This document shows positions 403 through 64,000 of a stretch of 64,000 nt of DNA, one piece after another. The position numbers and the translations under genes are program-made. Under the pieces are notes generated by a model, which had not been told where the DNA came from, did not search any database, and saw only the letters and a list, made by a program, of their open reading frames with translations. This DNA is from a virus. The first letter of the stretch is position 1. Each line of letters opens with the position of its first letter. The stretch is from positions 81,526 through 145,525 of IMG/VR virus record IMGVR_UViG_3300042564_004498. The stretch is one strand, 5' to 3'.

Positions 403-680
403 TTTGTTTCTAACGCCTCCATTTTAGATTTATTAATAAGATGTTCTGCCAGTGTGTAATTATCAACATTAGTTGTGATAATTGAATTAACCAAGTGTTT
501 GTGAGGAACATGAACTAAAAAATCAGTTCCGTTAAAGAATGTTAAATCATTCTTAAGTTCAATACAACCTTGAACCATTTTCAAAAACAGTTTGAATTGA
601 GTCGCGTTTACAAATGTTTCGCTCAAAAGTACACCGAATGTTTCGTGTTGAATCTTAATGTTATGTGAGTTCATGTTCAT
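399..680 (-). CDS. Hypothetical protein
   Basis: 93 aa ORF directly downstream of a TATCTTTG element (699-706). Confidence 0.7.
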   Translation of the reverse strand: MNMNSHNIKIQHETFGVLLSETFVNATQFKLFLKMVQGCIELKNDLTFFNGTDFLVHVPHKHLVNSIITTNVDNYTLAEHLINKSKMEALETK

Positions 681-698
681 ATCCCTTTGTTTAGATTA

Positions 699-727
699 CA
701 AAGATAAACATTATTTCTTTAGTAAAA
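699..727 (-). promoter_or_regulatory. Bacteroidetes-type promoter (-7 TATCTTTG, weaker -33 TTTA)
   Basis: Minus strand TTTACTAAAGAAATAATGTTTATCTTTG. Confidence 0.6.
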
Positions 728-739
728 AAATAATTAAAC

Positions 740-770
740 AAAAAAAGGTGTTACATCACTGTAACACCTT
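740..770 (-). terminator. Intrinsic terminator closing the large ncRNA
   Basis: 11-bp perfect stem AAGGTGTTACA/TGTAACACCTT, 4-nt loop, followed by a T-run on the minus strand. Confidence 0.85.
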
Positions 771-1640
771 CTTGGCTAATACGATGAGAATACTCGTCTT
801 ATTGAGAATCTTTAGAAGGATTATTGTTTCCCTTCGTTTCCACTATCTTTTGGATAGTAATCCTCATTGCCGATTAGTTAGACTAATCACTCCTTAAGGT
901 AATAACCACTCTCTTACTACTCTACTCTCTTCAACCTTGCGAGCTAACTCAGGATTCGACTCCTTAGAGGTTTTTGGTAAAAATACGATTGAACTTGGGA
1001 TTCTTTCGTGCCACGGACCGCCCGTGACTGTGTAGGCAACTTTCGTTATCACCTGACGAACACTTTTCCGTTTTTCTGTTAGTTTTTCACCTATTGAAAA
1101 GTTTGGTTTGTGTTGTGGATGAGTCCAAGTAGAGGTCCGTCTTAGGCTTCGTTATCTTTTGAACAACAAAATACCTGTCTACTCGGTGAGATATCCCTAT
1201 CTCCATATTTTAAGATTACTTCAAACGAACACCTTGGTAGATGTTTTGTAAGGTTAGTAGCGACACCACTCGTTCTCTAACTTACCTTTCGGTTTTAAGT
1301 CCCCTCTCATATTGGAGTCCGCAATAATATTGTTGGAACAATATTTTTTGCTTGACCCCTGTGACTTATTCTTATTGTTTTTCCAAACTCAGTTCAGGAA
1401 CCCACATTCCCAAACCATCCAACCACTTTCCCTAAAGCGTCGCCCTCAATACTCAAGGTCGGATGATATGTCACTTGTATACTCGAGTTCCATTTCTGAA
1501 ACCGCAATCCTGTTAACACAACAGGTTCACTTTATCCCCCTTTCGAGGTTTATTTGACGACCATATACAGCCGATTATCGTTTATTAAATTAGTCTCAAT
1601 GTCAACCCGAAGGTCTTGATATCAACATCTAAATGGATAA
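771..1640 (-). ncRNA. Large structured ncRNA (~870 nt), GOLLD-like candidate
   Basis: No credible ORF; GC higher than flanks; many hairpins with canonical tetraloops on the minus strand (ACC-GAAA-GGT 1284-1293, CCTC-GAAA-GGGG 1537-1548, ACC-TTCG-GGT 1605-1614; stems at 842-858, 872-888, 1326-1345, 1509-1525); own promoter, boxA and terminator; next to tRNAs. Ends approximate; family not verified. Confidence 0.7.
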
Positions 1641-1645
1641 TAATA

Positions 1646-1657
1646 TTTTCAAAGAAC
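1646..1657 (-). promoter_or_regulatory. boxA-like antitermination element
   Basis: Minus strand GTTCTTTGAAAA just before the ncRNA; resembles rRNA-leader boxA. Confidence 0.55.
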
Positions 1658-1670
1658 GTAATTCATATTA

Positions 1671-1720
1671 ATGAAGGAAAGGTCAACCTTACCGAAGTGG
1701 GATTTTAACCCTTCCTTCAT
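1671..1720 (-). other. Leader stem-loop between promoter and boxA
   Basis: ATGAAGGAAGGGTTAA pairs with TTGACCTTTCCTTCAT (16 bp including G-U pairs). Confidence 0.65.
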
Positions 1721-1733
1721 TTCAATTGTTTTA

Positions 1734-1765
1734 CAAAGGTAGATGAAAGTTTTGACACTGTCAAA
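1734..1765 (-). promoter_or_regulatory. Bacteroidetes-type promoter TTTG-N20-TACCTTTG
   Basis: Matches the -33/-7 consensus with a 20-nt spacer. Confidence 0.8.
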
Positions 1766-1868
1766 TTTTTATAAAACTTTTTTCTAACAATCTTACTCTG
1801 TTACTACCGATAGTGAGATTTGATTTCGGTGATTGTTAAAGACCAAATAGTGTTACCCGTTTGGTTTA

Positions 1869-1900
1869 CAAAGATAAGAAAGTTTTTTTGAACTGTCAAA
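1869..1900 (-). promoter_or_regulatory. Bacteroidetes-type promoter TTTG-N20-TATCTTTG
   Basis: Consensus match; near-identical copy at 2313-2344. Confidence 0.8.
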
Positions 1901-2006
1901 TCTTTTTTTAGAAATTTTGTGTTTATTTTTTTAATGACCAAAGTCAAAAACCATATTTTATAACACACCCTCTTTCATGGTCTTGGGGTTATCTCCAATT
2001 GTTTTA

Positions 2007-2038
2007 CAAAGATATGAATAACTTTTCAATTAATCAAA
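2007..2038 (-). promoter_or_regulatory. Bacteroidetes-type promoter TTTG-N20-TATCTTTG
   Basis: Consensus match. Confidence 0.8.
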
Positions 2039-2065
2039 CACTTTTTAAAACTTTTTTTTAATTAG

Positions 2066-2138
2066 TAGCGGGAGAAGGACTCGAACCTCCGACCTTATGG
2101 TTATGAGCCACACGAGCTGCCAACTGCTCTATCCCACG
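2066..2138 (-). tRNA. tRNA-Met(CAT), initiator-like
   Basis: Cloverleaf CGTGGGA..TCCCGCT-A with C1 mismatch; anticodon arm TGTGG-CTCATAA-CCATA; T-arm GGAGG-TTCGAGT-CCTTC; CCA not encoded. Confidence 0.9.
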
Positions 2139-2152
2139 ATGTTTGTTGTTAG

Positions 2153-2225
2153 TTGCGTAGGGCCGGAAACGAACCGACTTGGACTGGCTTATGAGACCAG
2201 TGAGATACCTTACCTCCCCCTCGCG
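2153..2225 (-). tRNA. Atypical tRNA(CAT), initiator-like or degenerate
   Basis: Anticodon arm CTGGT-CTCATAA-GCCAG; T-arm GTCGG-TTCGTTT-CCGGC; C1xA72 mismatch; one bulged A in the acceptor stem. Confidence 0.7.
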
Positions 2226-2236
2226 ATATATCATTA

Positions 2237-2247
2237 TTTTAAAGAAC
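2237..2247 (-). promoter_or_regulatory. boxA-like element upstream of the tRNA pair
   Basis: Minus strand GTTCTTTAAAA. Confidence 0.5.
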
Positions 2248-2312
2248 TTCAGATAAAAAATCCCACAAGCTACAAGGGTTTTCTCAAACTCACACTTGCG
2301 GGATTTGTTTCA

Positions 2313-2344
2313 CAAAGATAGGAAAGTTTTTTTGAACTGTCAAA
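2313..2344 (-). promoter_or_regulatory. Bacteroidetes-type promoter driving the tRNA pair
   Basis: TTTG-N20-TATCTTTG followed by a hairpin at 2258-2306. Confidence 0.8.
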
Positions 2345-2495
2345 TCTTTTTTTAACCGCGAAACATTTTCTGGGGTGTTTGTCCTTTCGGACATGAACAT
2401 ATAAATATGTCCTTTTTTTTAAAAATACAATAATATTATTGAAATGTCAAATAAAAATTCAAATACTATTATGTTTTCTAAAGTATTTATTTGAT

Positions 2496-2849
2496 ATGAA
2501 GGTAAGAATTAACGATAACAGTTTTAATGTAAAAACATTAATTGATAGAGAATCCCAATCAATTGGGATGATGGGTAAAGCATTTGATGGAACTTTTAAT
2601 GGATTGTTATTCTTAATGGATGGTAAGAAACAATGTTTTTGGATGAAGGGTTGTGTAATTCCATTAGACATAATCATTATAAAGAACAATGTGATTGTAA
2701 ATATACATCACGATTGTCCTCCATGTAATAATGAATTTGATTGTCCTTCCTATTGTGGAAACGGTAATATTGTATTAGAACTTGAGGGTGGTTCTTGTGA
2801 AATCCTCAACATTCAACCGGGTGATAGTATCACTTACGACTTATCTTAA
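2496..2849 (+). CDS. DUF192 family protein
   Basis: GMM..GLLF, FWMKG..IPLDIIII and VLELEGG motifs; start moved to ATG 2496, just after TATTTAT. Confidence 0.8.
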   Translation: MKVRINDNSFNVKTLIDRESQSIGMMGKAFDGTFNGLLFLMDGKKQCFWMKGCVIPLDIIIIKNNVIVNIHHDCPPCNNEFDCPSYCGNGNIVLELEGGSCEILNIQPGDSITYDLS

Positions 2850-4258
2850 TCCTCCGAAGAATTTTTAGACTCCTCAATTTTTTTCTTTAATACTTTTTGA
2901 AATTCAGTAGCAATCATTTTTGTAAACTTAACTGATGGTGAATCATCTTTCTCAGAATCATACTTATACTTACCTTGTGGTGGTCTTTTACCTCTACCTA
3001 AATAATTAAGTCCTGAGATATTGGTAATACATTTGTGACCACCAGAATTAGACTGAATTAAATCCCAAGCATTAATACCAATTTTATCCATCAATTCAAG
3101 TTCTTGTTCAGATAATTCATTGAATGGTTTTTCCATCATTCTTTCAATTTTTCCTAAGGCTTCTTCTCCACCGTCCATGAATACAAATTTTCCACCGTAA
3201 AGAGCGTCAAAGTCTTTAAAAGTAAAACCAACACTTTCAGGTCCAGCACTTGTTTCACTAACCCATTTCATAGTTGACAAAGGAATTTTCCTATCCTTTA
3301 ATTGAGATTCCCATCTAACCAAAACTTCTTGAGCTATCTCCCCAAGATTAACCCCTTTAAGTTCTCTTTCTTTTTTAAACGGATTACAAGATGCTTGAAC
3401 AAGACCCATCGGCCAAGCCATGATAAGAAAATCCGCCTCAGGATTATTTCTGAATGGTGTATATCTGTCGTAAGACCCAGGCTTAAACATACTACCCCCA
3501 CCGTATTGAAAAATAATGTTATCAGACACTGTTGGATAGTCTGCCATTTTGTCTGCATAATCTTGTGCATTTTTTTGTAAGTCTTCAGGTTTGGCGGCAT
3601 TTGTTTTTGTCATCCAAGCTCTAATGTTATTTAGTATAGACAATAAAGAAGGTTCAGAATCCATAACCAATCCTTCTAAAAATCCTGGTTTGTTTTTAAA
3701 AGCTAAAAGTAATTTGTTTATTACTAAACCTAATAACATTTTATTCTTTTGTAATGAAGAGTCTTTATCTATTCTGTAGATATAATTAACCACTTCTTTT
3801 GGTGTAATATCATGTTTTGCATAATCCGCAGAATCCACGGTATTAATCAATAATATATCAGATGATGGGAATAAATCTGTTGGTGAAACTACTTGAGAAA
3901 TAGTCTCAACATTTGAACGAGCCCCTCTAAATTGTTTGGAGGTACCCTTTTCAACACCAACTTGTTTATCGTGATGGTCTGTGTGAATCACAAACATTGG
4001 TTTACCATGAGCAAAATCTACTAGAACAGGCATTGTATCCCCTTGAGCGTCATTCTTTTTAACCGAGAACTCCTTATCACCATATTGTATAATATGGGCA
4101 CCAACAACATCAATACCGTTGTCTTCAAGGTATTTTTTCATCGCAATCGCTGTTGTTACCCCATCAAGGTCTTGGTGAAAATAAATCTCAGCTTTTTGAT
4201 ATCTTTTCTTTAAGGCGTTGATATTTCTCAACCCTGATTCTGATATAATTCTTTTCAT
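2846..4258 (-). CDS. DHH-family phosphoesterase-like protein
   Basis: HQDLDG, VDFAHG, TDHHD, DSAD and C-terminal GGH motifs. Confidence 0.75.
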   Translation of the reverse strand: MKRIISESGLRNINALKKRYQKAEIYFHQDLDGVTTAIAMKKYLEDNGIDVVGAHIIQYGDKEFSVKKNDAQGDTMPVLVDFAHGKPMFVIHTDHHDKQVGVEKGTSKQFRGARSNVETISQVVSPTDLFPSSDILLINTVDSADYAKHDITPKEVVNYIYRIDKDSSLQKNKMLLGLVINKLLLAFKNKPGFLEGLVMDSEPSLLSILNNIRAWMTKTNAAKPEDLQKNAQDYADKMADYPTVSDNIIFQYGGGSMFKPGSYDRYTPFRNNPEADFLIMAWPMGLVQASCNPFKKERELKGVNLGEIAQEVLVRWESQLKDRKIPLSTMKWVSETSAGPESVGFTFKDFDALYGGKFVFMDGGEEALGKIERMMEKPFNELSEQELELMDKIGINAWDLIQSNSGGHKCITNISGLNYLGRGKRPPQGKYKYDSEKDDSPSVKFTKMIATEFQKVLKKKIEESKNSSED

Positions 4259-58009: not shown

Positions 58010-60283
58010 ATGAAGAAAATATTTGCACATGGTTCTTACATTGGGAACACAGGTTATAATCAACATACAAGAGACTTTTTTAGACATTTATCAAAACATG
58101 CCCAGATAAAAGTTAGAAATTTTACTGTAGGTAGTTCTTGGGATGGGATAAGTCCTGAACCACATAATAACGAGCCGTATTTTAACGATACAGATAGAAA
58201 ATTACTGTACGAACAAATCCTTTGGAATACAGATAAAACAAGAGGTAATCATAAAATTTATGAAGACCCATCAAAAGATTTTTTCCCTGATGTTAACATT
58301 GTATTATGTGAAACAAACCACCATTTATTTTACGATGAATATTATGGACCAAAAATTGCATATAATGTTTGGGAATCCACATTACAACCTGAAGGTTATT
58401 TCAACAAATTAAAAGAATTTGATGAATTATGGGTACCATCAAAATGGCAAAGAGATTGTACTATCTCTCAAGGTTATGACCCAAGTAAAATTAAAGTTGT
58501 TCCTGAAGGTGTTGATGTTAATACTTTCTTTCCTGAAGATACTTCACATGAATTAACCTCAGATGGAAGATTTAAATTCTTTTTAGCAGGTAGATGGGAT
58601 TATAGAAAATCAATTAAAGAAATTATTGAGACATTTCTTAAAACTTTTGATAAAGATGAACCAGTTGATTTAATTATTTCTGTTGATAACCCATTTTCAG
58701 GTGATGGTATGAAAACTACGGAAGAAAGATTAGAACATTACGGATTAAACGATGACAGAATTAAAATATTACATTTCCCTCCAAGAGAAGAATATATTAA
58801 AATATTAAAATCTTGTGACGCGTTTGTATCATGTGCAAGGTCTGAAGGATGGAACCTACCACTTATTGAAGCGATGGCTTGTGGTACACCATCTATCTAT
58901 TCAAACTGTTCAGGTCAATTAGAATTTGCTGAAGGTAAAGGTTTACCCGTTAAAATTGTGGGTGAAAAACCAGTTGATGCCAGTACCTATAGTCATTTTA
59001 ACGATTCTATTGGAAACTACTACGAACCTGACTTTAATGATTTAGGTAAACAGATGTGGAATGTAGTTACTAATCACCAACACTATAAACAAATAGCATT
59101 AGAAGAATCTGAAATTATTAGAAAAGAATTTAATTGGGAACATGTTGCAGAAATTGGGATAAAAACAATTAACGAATTTTTGGAAAAAACTCTTAAAGTT
59201 GAGGACACTAATAAAACAATAATTACTTACTTTGATGGACCAAGAGTTGAAATTAAAGGTAATCACAATAATAAATACTTTGTTGAATTTATTGATGGTG
59301 AAGGTAAAGTTAGATTTTCAGACACCATAACCAACAATATGTGGACTTCTTGTGGTATAAAATATTATGTTCCATGGACAATTAAAATAAATGGTAAAGT
59401 TGTTGAAAATTTTAGTTTAGACAATAAAAAAGTTTTAATCAGATTTGAATCCAAATCAATTGGTGATACTATTGCTTGGTCACCATATGCAGTTGAGTTA
59501 ATGAAACAAAGAAATTGTAAGGTAGTATTATCAACTTTTCATAATGAATGGTTCAAAGGTTTAGATTCATATAAAAATATTGAATTTATTAATCCAGGAC
59601 ATTCTTCAGATTGTGACGTTATCTATAAATTAGGATGGTTTAAAGATGATAAAACAGGATGGAAAAGATTTGATATGCACCCAAATCAAGTAAACTTAAT
59701 TCCCCTACAAAAAACAGCAACAGATATTTTAGGTTTAGATTTCAAAGAAATTAATCATGGTGTTAATTTCAAATTATCTAAAAGACCAATAAAAAACAAA
59801 TATGTTGTATTTGGTCCACAATCAACTGCCGGTTGTAAAGAATGGGTTTTAGAAAATTGGATAACATTATCTAAAATGTTAAAAGAAATTGGTTATGAAA
59901 TTATGATATTATCCCTTAATGATTATAAAATAGATGGAGTACATGTTAACACAACTAAAGATTGGAATGAAGTTATGAATTGTTTATATCATTCAGAATT
60001 TTTTGTAGGTTTAAGTTCGGGACTATCTTGGGTTAATTGGTCATTAAATAAAAAAACAGTTATGATATCAGGTTTTAGTGAAGATAGTCATGAATGTCAA
60101 ACCAATGTGACACGAGTATCAAATAATGTTTGTATTAAATGTTGGAATGACCCTGTATTAGTATTTAATCCTGGTGATTGGGATTGGTGTCCTGTTTATA
60201 AAAACACCGAAAGACAACATATTTGTCAAAAATCAATAACGCCTCTACAAGTATTTAACTCATTACCAATAATTAAAGATTAA
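58010..60283 (+). CDS. Fusion of a GT4-family glycosyltransferase and an AAH/TibC-like protein O-heptosyltransferase domain
   Basis: N-half VPEGVD, SEGWNLPLIEAMACGTP; C-half SKSIGDTIAW, STAGCKEW, FVGLSSGLSW..VMISGFS and four-Cys CIKCWN..WCP..C. Confidence 0.85.
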   Translation: MKKIFAHGSYIGNTGYNQHTRDFFRHLSKHAQIKVRNFTVGSSWDGISPEPHNNEPYFNDTDRKLLYEQILWNTDKTRGNHKIYEDPSKDFFPDVNIVLCETNHHLFYDEYYGPKIAYNVWESTLQPEGYFNKLKEFDELWVPSKWQRDCTISQGYDPSKIKVVPEGVDVNTFFPEDTSHELTSDGRFKFFLAGRWDYRKSIKEIIETFLKTFDKDEPVDLIISVDNPFSGDGMKTTEERLEHYGLNDDRIKILHFPPREEYIKILKSCDAFVSCARSEGWNLPLIEAMACGTPSIYSNCSGQLEFAEGKGLPVKIVGEKPVDASTYSHFNDSIGNYYEPDFNDLGKQMWNVVTNHQHYKQIALEESEIIRKEFNWEHVAEIGIKTINEFLEKTLKVEDTNKTIITYFDGPRVEIKGNHNNKYFVEFIDGEGKVRFSDTITNNMWTSCGIKYYVPWTIKINGKVVENFSLDNKKVLIRFESKSIGDTIAWSPYAVELMKQRNCKVVLSTFHNEWFKGLDSYKNIEFINPGHSSDCDVIYKLGWFKDDKTGWKRFDMHPNQVNLIPLQKTATDILGLDFKEINHGVNFKLSKRPIKNKYVVFGPQSTAGCKEWVLENWITLSKMLKEIGYEIMILSLNDYKIDGVHVNTTKDWNEVMNCLYHSEFFVGLSSGLSWVNWSLNKKTVMISGFSEDSHECQTNVTRVSNNVCIKCWNDPVLVFNPGDWDWCPVYKNTERQHICQKSITPLQVFNSLPIIKD

Positions 60284-60312
60284 AAAAAAAGGGACTTAGA
60301 GTCCCTTTTTTT
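60283..60312. terminator. Bidirectional terminator between converging genes
   Basis: A-run GGGACT-TAG-AGTCCC T-run. Confidence 0.8.
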
Positions 60313-63300
60313 ATATTATTGCTTTATATTCTAATAATACTTTTTCAACATCTTTACGTTCTGCATATATTAAGTAGAACACATTAATATTATCACAAGT
60401 ACTATCAATGAATACTTTATTATCTTTAACTTCAACTACATAGTTTTCACAAGGATATCCTATTGATGTTAAGTTTACCGTAAAACTATCTTCGTGGACT
60501 AATCCAATCCAATAATCAGGTAATTCAATTACTTTATCAGTTGCTTTACCTCTAAAATAAACTCCATGTTCTGGTCCCTCTAATACACCGTATCTTAATC
60601 TATACCCCTCTTTTGTTGGGTGGGGAATGTCAAATGATTTTGACGCCGCTGTTAATGCTCCTGTTATTGCAGTATCACCAGTAACTCTTAAAGTACTTCC
60701 ATCAAACCTTAAATTAACCTCACCATTAATAACACCTGATGTTCCAGTTGCAGTTATTACGTAATTGTCAACATTATTTAAAATAGTTGCAGAACCTGAT
60801 GTTCCTGACGAACCACTTGAACCGCTAGTTCCTGACGAACCTGATGAACCTGATGTACCACTTGAACCTGAAGAACCTGATGTACCACTTGAACCAGATG
60901 TTCCTGATGAACCAGATGTTCCTGAAGAACCGCTTGAACCGCTAGTTCCTGATGAACCTGATGTACCGCTTGAACCTGATTTACCTGAAGAACCACTTGA
61001 ACCTGAAGTTCCTGAAGAACCACTTAAACCTGATGTACCGCTTGAACCTGAACTTCCGCTAGTTCCTGACGAACCACTTGAACCGCTAGTTCCTGACGAA
61101 CCACTTGAACCGCTAGTTCCTGAAGAACCTGATGTACCGCTTGAACCTGATTTACCTGAAGAACCACTTGAACCTGAAGTTCCTGATGAACCAGATGTTC
61201 CTGAAGAACCACTTGAACCTGAACTTCCGCTAGTTCCTGAAGAACCGCTCGAACCTGATGTTCCTGATGAACCTGATGTACCGCTTGAACCAGATGTTCC
61301 TGATGAACCGCTTGAACCTGAAGTTCCTGAAGAACCACTTGAACCGCTAGTTCCTGAAGAACCTGATGTACCGCTTGAACCTGATTTACCTGAAGAACCA
61401 CTTGAACCTGAAGTTCCTGAAGAACCACTTGAACCTGAAGTTCCTGAAGAACCGCTTGAACCTGAAGTTCCTGATGAACCGCTTGAACCGCTAGTTCCTG
61501 ATGAACCTGATGTACCACTTGAACCAGATGTTCCTGATGAACCAGATGTTCCTGAAGAACCGCTTGAACCTGATGTACCGCTTGAACCTGAACTTCCGCT
61601 AGTTCCTGACGAACCACTTGAACCTGATGTACCGCTTGAACCTGATGTACCACTTGAACCAGATGTTCCTGATGAACCAGATGTTCCTGAAGAACCGCTT
61701 GAACCGCTAGTTCCTGATGAACCTGATGTACCACTTGAACCAGATGTTCCTGATGAACCAGATGTTCCTGAAGAACCGCTTGAACCGCTAGTTCCTGAAG
61801 AACCTGATGTTCCTGATGAACCTGATGTACCGCTTGAACCAGATGTTCCTGAAGAACCGCTTGAACCGCTAGTTCCTGATGAACCTGATGTACCGCTTGA
61901 ACCTGATTTACCTGAAGAACCGCTTGAACCTGAAGTTCCTGATGAACCACTTGAACCTGAAGTTCCTGAAGAACCACTTGAACCTGAAGTTCCTGAAGAA
62001 CCACTTGAACCTGAAGTTCCTGAAGAACCACTTGAACCTGATGTACCGCTTGAACCTGATGTACCGCTTGAACCAGATGTTCCTGATGAACCAGATGTTC
62101 CTGAAGAACCGCTTGAACCTGAAGTTCCTGAAGAACCACTTGAACCGCTAGTTCCTGAAGAACCTGATGTACCACTTGAACCAGATGTTCCTGATGAACC
62201 AGATGTTCCTGAAGAACCACTTGAACCTGATGTACCGCTTGAACCAGATGTTCCTGATGAACCGCTTGAACCTGAAGAACCGCTTGAACCTGAAGTTCCT
62301 GAAGAACCACTTGAACCTGATGTACCGCTTGAACCTGAACTTCCGCTAGTTCCTGACGAACCACTTGAACCGCTAGTTCCTGAAGAACCTGATGTACCAC
62401 TTGAACCAGATGTTCCTGATGAACCAGATGTTCCTGAAGAACCGCTTGAACCGCTAGTTCCTGAAGAACCTGAACTTCCGCTAGTTCCTGATGAACCTGA
62501 TGCACCGCTTGAGCCAGAGGTTCCTGAAGAACCTGATGAACCGCTTGAACCTGAACTACCACTAGTTCCAGAAGAACCATCTGTACCGTCAATACCTGAA
62601 CAACCTGTTACTCCACTAGTTCCTGATGAACCGCTTGAACCTGATGTTCCTGAAGAACCGCTTGAACCGCTAGTTCCTGATGAACCACTTGAACCAGATG
62701 TTCCTGAAGAACCTGATGTACCTGAACTTCCGCTAGTTCCTGAAGAACCGCTTGAACCGCTAGTTCCTGATGAACCTGAACTTCCGCTAGTTCCTGAAGA
62801 ACCACTTGAACCAGATGTTCCTGAAGAACCTGAACTTCCGCTAGTTCCTGAAGAACCGCTAGTTCCTGAAGAACCTGATGTACCTGAACTTCCGCTAGTT
62901 CCTGACGAACCACTTGAACCGCTAGTTCCTGAAGAACCACTTGAACCGCTAGTTCCTGAAGAACCACTTGAACCTGATGTTCCTGAAGAACCTGATGTAC
63001 CTGAACTTCCGCTAGTTCCTGAAGAACCGCTTGAACCGCTAGTTCCTGAAGAACCACTTGAACCAGATGTTCCTGAAGAACCTGAACTTCCGCTAGTTCC
63101 TGAAGAACCACTTGAACCGCTAGTTCCTGAAGAACCACTTGAACCGCTAGTTCCTGAAGAACCACTTGAACCGCTAGTTCCTGAAGAACCACTTGAACCT
63201 GATGTTCCTGAAGAACCACTTGAACCGCTAGTTCCTGAAGAACCGCTTGAACCGCTAGTTCCTGAAGAACCGCTTGAACCGCTAGTTCCTGATGAACCTG

Positions 63301-64000
63301 AACTTCCGCTAGTTCCTGAAGAACCACTTGAACCGCTAGTTCCTGAAGAACCTGATGTACCGCTTGAACCAGATGTTCCTGATGAACCTGAACTTCCACT
63401 AGTTCCTGAAGAACCGCTTGAACCGCTAGTTCCTGAAGAACCTGATGTACCGCTTGAACCAGATGTTCCTGAAGAACCTGAACTTCCGCTAGTTCCTGAA
63501 GAACCTGATGTACCGCTTGAACCAGATGTTCCTGAAGAACCGCTTGAACCGCTAGTTCCTGAAGAACCGCTTGAACCGCTAGTTCCTGAAGAACCGCTTG
63601 AACCGCTAGTTCCTGAAGAACCGCTTGAACCGCTAGTTCCTGATGAACCGCTTGAACCTGATGTTCCTGAAGAACCGCTTGAACCGCTAGTTCCTGATGA
63701 ACCACTTGAACCAGATGTTCCTGAAGAACCTGATGTACCTGAACTTCCGCTAGTTCCTGAAGAACCGCTTGAACCGCTAGTTCCTGATGAACCTGAACTT
63801 CCGCTAGTTCCTGAAGAACCACTTGAACCAGATGTTCCTGAAGAACCTGAACTTCCGCTAGTTCCTGAAGAACCGCTAGTTCCTGAAGAACCTGATGTAC
63901 CTGAACTTCCGCTAGTTCCTGACGAACCACTTGAACCGCTAGTTCCTGAAGAACCACTTGAACCGCTAGTTCCTGAAGAACCACTTGAACCTGATGTTCC
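60311..64000 (-). CDS. Giant Gly-Ser-Thr repeat fibre protein (5' end outside window, at least 1229 aa) with C-terminal chaperone-like domain
   Basis: True frame reads ..GTSGSSGSSGTS..GSATILNNVDNYVITATG..KSFDIPHPTKEGYRLRYGVLEGPEHGVYFRG..IELPDYWIGLV..AERKDVEKVLLEYKAII*; frame spot-checked at both ends and at interruptions, no stop found. Confidence 0.88.
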   Translation of the reverse strand, partial: GTSGSSGSSGTSGSSGSSGTSGSSGSSGTSGSSGTSGSSGTSGSSGTSGSSGSSGTSGSSGSSGTSGSSGSSGTSGSSGSSGTSGSSGTSGSSGTSGSSGSSGTSGSSGSSGTSGSSGSSGTSGSSGSSGTSGSSGSSGTSGSSGSSGTSGSSGSSGTSGSSGTSGSSGTSGSSGSSGTSGSSGTSGSSGTSGSSGSSGTSGSSGSSGTSGSSGTSGSSGTSGSSGSSGTSGSSGSSGTSGSSGSSGTSGSSGSSGTSGSSGSSGTSGSSGSSGTSGSSGSSGTSGSSGSSGTSGSSGSSGTSGSSGSSGTSGSSGSSGTSGSSGSSGTSGSSGTSGSSGTSGSSGSSGTSGSSGSSGTSGSSGSSGTSGSSGTSGSSGTSGSSGTSGSSGSSGTSGSSGSSGTSGSSGSSGTSGSSGSSGTSGSSGTSGSSGTSGSSGSSGTSGSSGSSGTSGSSGSSGTSGVTGCSGIDGTDGSSGTSGSSGSSGSSGSSGTSGSSGASGSSGTSGSSGSSGTSGSSGSSGTSGSSGTSGSSGTSGSSGTSGSSGSSGTSGSSGSSGTSGSSGSSGTSGSSGSSGSSGSSGTSGSSGTSGSSGSSGTSGSSGTSGSSGTSGSSGTSGSSGSSGTSGSSGSSGTSGSSGTSGSSGTSGSSGTSGSSGSSGTSGSSGSSGTSGSSGSSGTSGSSGSSGTSGSSGSSGKSGSSGTSGSSGTSGSSGSSGTSGSSGTSGSSGTSGSSGTSGSSGSSGTSGSSGTSGSSGTSGSSGTSGSSGSSGTSGSSGTSGSSGTSGSSGTSGSSGSSGTSGSSGSSGTSGSSGSSGTSGSSGTSGSSGTSGSSGTSGSSGSSGTSGSSGSSGTSGSSGSSGTSGSSGSSGKSGSSGTSGSSGTSGSSGSSGTSGSSGSSGTSGSSGTSGSSGTSGSSGSSGTSGSSGSSGSSGTSGSSGTSGSSGSSGKSGSSGTSGSSGTSGSSGSSGTSGSSGSSGTSGSSGSSGTSGLSGSSGTSGSSGSSGKSGSSGTSGSSGTSGSSGSSGTSGSSGTSGSSGTSGSSGSSGTSGSSGSSGTSGSSGSSGTSGSATILNNVDNYVITATGTSGVINGEVNLRFDGSTLRVTGDTAITGALTAASKSFDIPHPTKEGYRLRYGVLEGPEHGVYFRGKATDKVIELPDYWIGLVHEDSFTVNLTSIGYPCENYVVEVKDNKVFIDSTCDNINVFYLIYAERKDVEKVLLEYKAII
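60794..64000. repeat. 9-bp unit tandem repeat (~356 units) encoding GSS/GTS
   Basis: Plus-strand units such as tgaagaacc, gcttgaacc, gctagttcc, agatgttcc. Confidence 0.95.

Follow-up and report, generated by a model that had tools for sequence, protein, structure and literature searches.

The minus strand from position 1765 to position 735 of the DNA considered here very probably carries a gene for GOLLD RNA that belongs to a large phage of freshwater type, which is the best explanation of the unit as a whole. This unit is self-contained and non-coding and consists, in the direction of transcription, of a promoter, a leader hairpin, a boxA-like word, a structured RNA and a terminator (Table 1). 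The RNA itself, at 1641-781, is GOLLD, a described family, and it has all of the defining features of this family that can be tested on a sequence. As a GOLLD copy it is complete and ordinary for such a phage, its rRNA-like leader being the only less familiar feature.

GOLLD is among the largest non-coding RNAs of bacteria or phages. It is encoded by phages or prophages, usually near tRNA genes, its expression goes up in lytic growth and, as has been known since 2025, it forms RNA-only cages that are larger than the ribosome. The stretch of DNA analysed (64,000 nucleotides, called the window in the following) runs from base 81526 to base 145525 of an IMG/VR virus record of 145.5 kb, whose completeness CheckV puts at 48%, so that the genome is probably of about 300 kb.

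Table 1. Predicted features of the GOLLD unit and of its upstream region in the window (positions given 5' to 3' on the minus strand)
Feature	Positions	Strand	Remarks
Second boxA-like word, GTTCTTTAAAA	2247-2237	-	upstream of the tRNA-Met pair; exact GYTCTTTAANA
tRNA-Met(CAT) pair	2224-2154 and 2138-2065	-	upstream of GOLLD; Rfam, ARAGORN
Promoter, Bacteroidota type	1765-1734	-	TTTG (1765-1762), 20 nt, TACCTTTG (1741-1734)
Leader hairpin, 17-bp stem	1721-1671	-	between promoter and boxA-like word, where rrn leaders have boxB
boxA-like word, GTTCTTTGAAAA	1657-1646	-	single-stranded, 4 nt upstream of helix P1
GOLLD 5' domain	1641-1187	-	about 455 nt, P1 and about 20 further helices
GOLLD 3' domain, P14-P27	1186-781	-	406 nt, the part modelled by RF02032
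A-rich internal linker	1124-1060	-	about 65 nt, unpaired, poorly conserved, length-variable among homologs; counterpart of J13/15
Hairpin L21a	963-952	-	loop G-UCGA-A (CG form)
Hairpin L21b	947-931	-	loop CGCAA
Intrinsic terminator	773-735	-	14-bp stem 773-742, GUGA loop, then UUUUUUUGUUU

Identity of the RNA

Using the covariance models of Rfam, we obtained a match to RF02032 (GOLLD) at 781-1186 of the window, on the minus strand, which scores 323.2 bits where the gathering score is 150. The match spans model positions 1-416 of 416, that is the whole model, and its E-value is between 2.6e-93 and 8.8e-92, the latter value being that obtained when the entire window is scanned. Besides GOLLD, just two tRNAs are found at E<=1 in window 600-2500, where ROOL, OLE, RNase P, tmRNA and introns are all absent. 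An earlier, sequence-only reading of this DNA had proposed a possibly divergent GOLLD as its first choice, had kept ROOL as a shorter alternative and a new large ncRNA class as another, and had asked for precisely this search. Its first choice was right, and the copy is closer to the family than the word divergent suggested, since every position of the model is covered at more than twice the gathering score; the RNA is confirmed and its novelty lowered by the same result. The ROOL alternative is lost, with zero match in window 600-2500 even at the permissive threshold, the new class is excluded by the full-length match, and the failure of that reading to find RNase P or tmRNA signatures is borne out. 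It had also relied on a phage location and a tRNA neighbourhood, and both hold, as the record is that of a virus and two tRNA-Met genes lie 0.4-0.6 kb upstream.

A new large RNA class, or a ROOL RNA, that merely resembles GOLLD has therefore a negligible probability. For it one may quote that no Rfam model exists for the 5' half and that the leader hairpin is unlike that of the relatives. Against it stand the full-length match to RF02032, the lack at E<=1 of any match to ROOL, OLE, RNase P, tmRNA or introns, and a 5' half whose entire length has homology with the 5' halves of over 100 further GOLLD loci; this homology together with the Rfam result refutes both the new class and ROOL. Hardly any weight is left, either, for a coding role of the region, with one small protein or several. 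It does offer ORFs of 30-81 aa, but all six frames of 770-1670 contain 10-23 stop codons each, the longest ORF, of 81 aa in this copy, changes strand, frame and position among the homologs, and the substitutions are compensatory in pairs, with no codon periodicity. The remark that almost 1 kb is here devoid of a credible ORF is thus supported, and the conserved protein-coding signal that the sequence-only reading had proposed to look for was not found, no ORF keeping its frame, strand or position across the 52 homologs.

Secondary structure and covariation

The folded conserved core, 1641-781, is 861 nt long, close to the 870 nt or so that had been estimated from the sequence. The single-sequence fold has an energy of -232.8 kcal/mol (z -3.7), and helices of the minus strand are capped by GNRA and UUCG loops, for example CUUCGG, CGAAAG and CAGAAAUG, which is how the strand had been correctly recognised.

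We then considered 52 distinct full-length copies, the window's own included, aligned by MAFFT (alignment A1, mean column identity 70%). RNAalifold proposes 190 pairs for these copies, 123 of which show double compensatory changes. The 105 pairs of the 5' domain are canonical in 97.6% of cases and 76 of them have double changes, whereas a control in which the partners are slid by 1-3 columns gives 35-41% canonical pairs and 21-35 double changes. For the 3' domain, 80 pairs are found, 98.7% canonical and 46 with double changes, against 41-49% and 7-17, respectively, in the same control. Covariation among homologs, which had been suggested as a check, is thus present, independently, in both halves of the RNA (185 local predicted pairs, about 98% canonical, versus about 40% when shifted). 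The structure is far beyond chance, and the 5' domain is, in this GOLLD clade, as constrained as the 3' domain for which a model exists.

Helix P1 was recovered by folding each copy separately, as a length-variable insertion is blurred in the MAFFT alignment. It is formed by AUUAUC (1641-1636) and GAUAAU (1579-1574), closes the 5' domain and carries the insertion of variable length at its distal end. P1 continues with UCAG/CUGA, which is UUAG/CUAA in the window, and it folds in most of the 52 homologs.

Features of the cage

Two solved structures allow the RNA to be compared with known cages. The env-38 GOLLD, of 833 nt, forms a 14-mer cage of D7 symmetry (PDB 9MEE; Kretsch et al. 2025, PMC12286853) in which the 5' domains make up the caps and the 3' domains the rings, with the disordered J13/15 linker directed inward (PMC12286853). 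The GOLLD of Streptococcus agalactiae, of 700 nt and lacking P21b, forms a 12-mer, and published GOLLDs vary between 10-, 12- and 14-mers (review PMC12990946). The kissing loops L21a and L21b correspond to bridges B8 and B9 (PMC12286853, PMC12990946), and a GC/CG swap in L21a is evidence that bridge B8 is a symmetric intermolecular kissing contact (PMC12286853).

In our alignment the two central bases of L21a form a self-complementary dinucleotide in 52 of 52 copies, being GC in 33, CG in 17 (window included) and AU in 2, which is the GC/CG swap of the published argument, and L21b contains GC in all of them. The linker of the window contains no tRNA according to ARAGORN. By homology with the env-38 and S. 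agalactiae RNAs, the RNA of the window would fold protein-free, its 5' domain making a cap and its 3' domain a ring, and would self-assemble, in some 12-14 copies, into a closed RNA-only cage, held in part by the symmetric kissing loops L21a and L21b and with its A-rich linker pointing inward. Cage formation and copy number are here extrapolated, the agreement of this RNA with the cage features being one at the level of sequence.

Expression signals of the unit

Promoters were searched with the pattern TTTG-N18-21-TAnnTTTG, which has nine matches in the window, four of them at 1734-2344 and all of these on the minus strand. The promoter that had been suggested at 1734-1765 is among them and reads TTTG-N20-TAnnTTTG, which we take to be the -33/-7 promoter consensus of Bacteroidota; it is of this type and does not follow the sigma-70 consensus. 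Transcription would start near 1727. The copies at 1869-1900 and 2313-2344 are nearly identical, all four matches, contained in less than 620 nt, face the tRNAs and GOLLD, and short non-coding units lie between them. Similarly, in relatives such as L024, L074 and L112, a promoter, a small hairpin and GTTCTTTRAAA are found before an unassigned unit of about 150 nt, which begins ...TTGGTTATAGAAACAGTCTAGGTCCG and is located upstream of GOLLD.

Positions 1642-1730 form a leader that is outside the folded core. The leader hairpin folds with -24.2 kcal/mol (z -4.83), none of 200 shuffled sequences being as stable, and relatives have in the same place a shorter hairpin, ATCGGA-N4-TCCGAT. At the other end of the unit, the terminator that had been placed at 740-770 is indeed present, with a stem directly followed by UUUUUUU (-17.8 kcal/mol, z -5.75).

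For the boxA announced by the sequence-only reading, a boxA-like word was indeed found. Compared with the boxA consensus of gamma-proteobacteria, GYTCTTTAANA (Baniulyte et al. 2017, PMC5725501), GTTCTTTGAAA (1657-1647) agrees at 10 of 11 positions, with G in place of A. The form GTTCTTTRAAA occurs just twice in the 145.5-kb record, on the same strand, once before GOLLD and once before the tRNA-Met pair. To count it more widely we used the whole 11-mer, the 9-mer GTTCTTTRA being too loose (143 unexplained copies): in 116 sequences (115 related loci and the window, 1.13 Mb) there are 94 copies, versus 4 of the reversed control. GOLLD is preceded by 72 of these 94 copies, and several of those that are not before GOLLD still follow a module made of a promoter and a small hairpin. 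In the 52 homologs, G14 and T18 are invariant and the other positions of the word are at least 90% conserved, and no covarying partner of the word was found in the alignment of these copies. The order in the 635-kb phage LR745206 is tRNA-Met, hairpin, GTTCTTTGAAA, GOLLD. The 642-kb phage LR756502 (L002), at about 1270-1400, has a GOLLD homolog with no GTTCTTTRA upstream; what precedes it there resembles a tRNA, although ARAGORN makes no call, and the leader is therefore not universal. No paper linking GOLLD with boxA or with antitermination was among the top results of our literature search, and the motif used as a text word returned chance primer matches only.

From these signals we infer that the leader may be an rRNA-style antitermination signal that shields a long untranslated transcript from Rho and aids its folding. 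The host RNA polymerase would start near the position given above, the nascent GUUCUUUGAAAA, directly after the leader hairpin, would recruit NusB/NusE as in rRNA leaders, and the 0.9-kb untranslated transcript could in this way escape Rho termination and fold co-transcriptionally up to the terminator at 773-742; expression and processing of the unit are likewise read from its signals. In the wider form of this proposal, the GOLLD of large Bacteroidota-type phages and the phage tRNAs would be made by a hijacked rRNA-style pathway, with a host promoter, a hairpin, boxA and antitermination by Nus factors, and here we consider the arguments for and against to be evenly balanced.

The word could have another role, although we find this rather doubtful, as a processing or stability element (for instance a single-stranded site, of RNase E/G or RNase P-leader type, by which the mature 5' ends of GOLLD and of the tRNAs would be set) or as a 5' tail of the folded RNA. 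GTTCTTTGAAA is AU-rich and unpaired, and it is placed 4 nt before P1 and 12-22 nt ahead of the 5' ends of tRNAs, positions at which one would expect cuts during maturation; against this, 10-11 of the 11 positions of the word agree with the published boxA consensus, and it comes after a hairpin close to the promoter, an arrangement also seen in rrn leaders. As for a folded tail, RNAalifold pairs the UUGA of the word with the invariant 3' loop UCUCA, but this pairing with the 3' terminal loop was rejected, as it shows no covariation and the loop, L27, is engaged in tertiary contacts in the solved structure (PMC12286853). Processing and antitermination are in any case compatible and do not exclude each other. 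It is unlikely, and a little more so, that GOLLD is the distal part of a long stable-RNA operon which starts at the upstream promoters and includes the tRNA-Met genes, the promoter at 1765-1734 adding little. Such an operon would account for four promoter matches of the same orientation within 620 nt, for a minus strand without a terminator-like site between the tRNAs and GOLLD, and for the tRNA-Met placed directly before the GOLLD leader in LR745206. However, the promoter at 1765-1734 fits the motif completely and has its own hairpin and boxA-like word, and in 97 of the 116 GOLLD loci (window included) no same-strand tRNA is found in the 1.5 kb upstream, which implies that GOLLD is usually expressed alone. 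We retain, for the window, a GOLLD unit that would be transcribed from its own promoter through an antitermination-type leader.

With regard to the tRNA neighbours, the tRNA-Met(CAT) at 2154-2224 is barely over its Rfam threshold (30.3 bits versus 29) and has 92.6% identity over 54 nt to Aeromonas phages AhSzw-1 and Akh-2, being named 'tRNA-Pseudo-CAT' in one record. A role of the GOLLD cage at the translation apparatus would seem to be the likeliest, because initiator-type tRNA genes adjoin the unit and because ribosomes have reportedly been recovered with GOLLD in a pull-down.

Distribution of the clade and phage context

Relatives were collected from viral contigs by means of a 23-nt degenerate core pattern, which gave 115 loci, all of them (115/115) homologous to the window sequence by nhmmer. 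The limits common to the loci are at about 1662 and about 778 of the window. In distant members, homology is limited to window positions from about 1657-1665 to about 778-783, and in close members it extends into the upstream promoters. The contigs concerned are mostly of 50-300 kb, many of them above 100 kb, and the best match to the GOLLD of the window is found on a viral contig of 308.6 kb (L012). Full-length homologs are present in the two uncultured huge phages, LR745206 and LR756502, and Rfam gives 287-315 bits for four relatives, among which LR745206 has 287 bits. GenBank phages include no close relative: the RNA is matched only by these two huge phages and by a short stretch of an Acinetobacter phage, and the other parts of the first 25 kb of the window have no match except a 54-nt piece of tRNA. 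When the core pattern was searched in the genomes of 185,579 bacterial and archaeal species, 6 contigs were matched and none was homologous by nhmmer, so that prophages give no indication of the host. This GOLLD clade thus seems to belong to large phages of lytic type and not to sequenced bacterial genomes or their prophages. No paper among the top results of the literature search links GOLLD with jumbo or huge phages.

Two relatives carry a tmRNA on the opposite strand within a few kb of GOLLD (L024:6034-6424 (+), 105 bits, and L074:2804-3190 (+), 65 bits), and none was found in the window.

Among the genes of the window are some for virion structural proteins and one for an SbcC-like nuclease. 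The four genes nearest to GOLLD (97, 93, 136 and 470 aa; 109-680 and 2439-4258) have no PHROGs match at E<=1e-5. Bacteroidota may be the host phylum, as suggested by the two features that bear on it, the promoter motif and the low G+C. The protein bS21 is a marker of a clade of freshwater Bacteroidota phages with genomes of about 300 kb; it is absent from this fragment, which is uninformative. Towards the end of the window, at 60000-64000, the G+C climbs from about 30% to 41-48% and very long overlapping ORFs, of 1229 aa and 1078 aa, can be drawn on the two strands, so that this end differs in composition from the remainder of the phage.

The copy in the window adds little by itself, and the set of 115 related viral loci, with 52 distinct full-length copies aligned (the window's own included), together with two phages of more than 600 kb, is more useful. 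Interest lies in the function of GOLLD and in its rRNA-style leader. The expression signals of the clade look like those of rRNA operons, and they suggest how GOLLD may reach high levels and fold during transcription; the hijacked pathway, if true, would offer a handle on the expression and the study of the cage in vivo.

Comparison with known systems

ROOL resembles GOLLD as a phage or prophage RNA found near tRNA genes, which forms RNA-only cages and is of a similar size class, but its sequence and fold are unrelated, and ROOL has no match at E<=1 in window 600-2500.

The env-38 GOLLD is much closer. Both RNAs have two domains (455 and 406 nt here, 420 and 413 nt in env-38), the likeness of the 5' domain being one of domain size. 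Both have a variable internal linker and a palindromic L21a dinucleotide, and the window has L21a as well as L21b, as does env-38, whereas the S. agalactiae GOLLD has no P21b. Both are of phage origin and are located downstream of a Met-tRNA (for env-38, PMC12286853). The window differs in its L21a, which has CG, in UCGA, where GC is the commoner form. With respect to env-38 and other published GOLLDs, it differs further by the clade-specific insertion in P1, and by a gene that lies in a large phage fragment with Bacteroidota-type promoters and a leader made of a hairpin and a boxA-like word.

The leader of rrn operons, with its boxB-boxA-boxC arrangement and the factors NusA, NusB, NusE, NusG, SuhB and S4, is the third point of comparison. 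The cargo is here a phage RNA and not rRNA, and no boxC was recognised downstream of the boxA-like word. The likeness concerns the strong promoter or promoters, the hairpin and the single-stranded word that matches boxA, and it extends to the cargo, since in both cases a long, untranslated and highly folded stable RNA is produced along with tRNAs, that is to say transcripts that would need protection from Rho.
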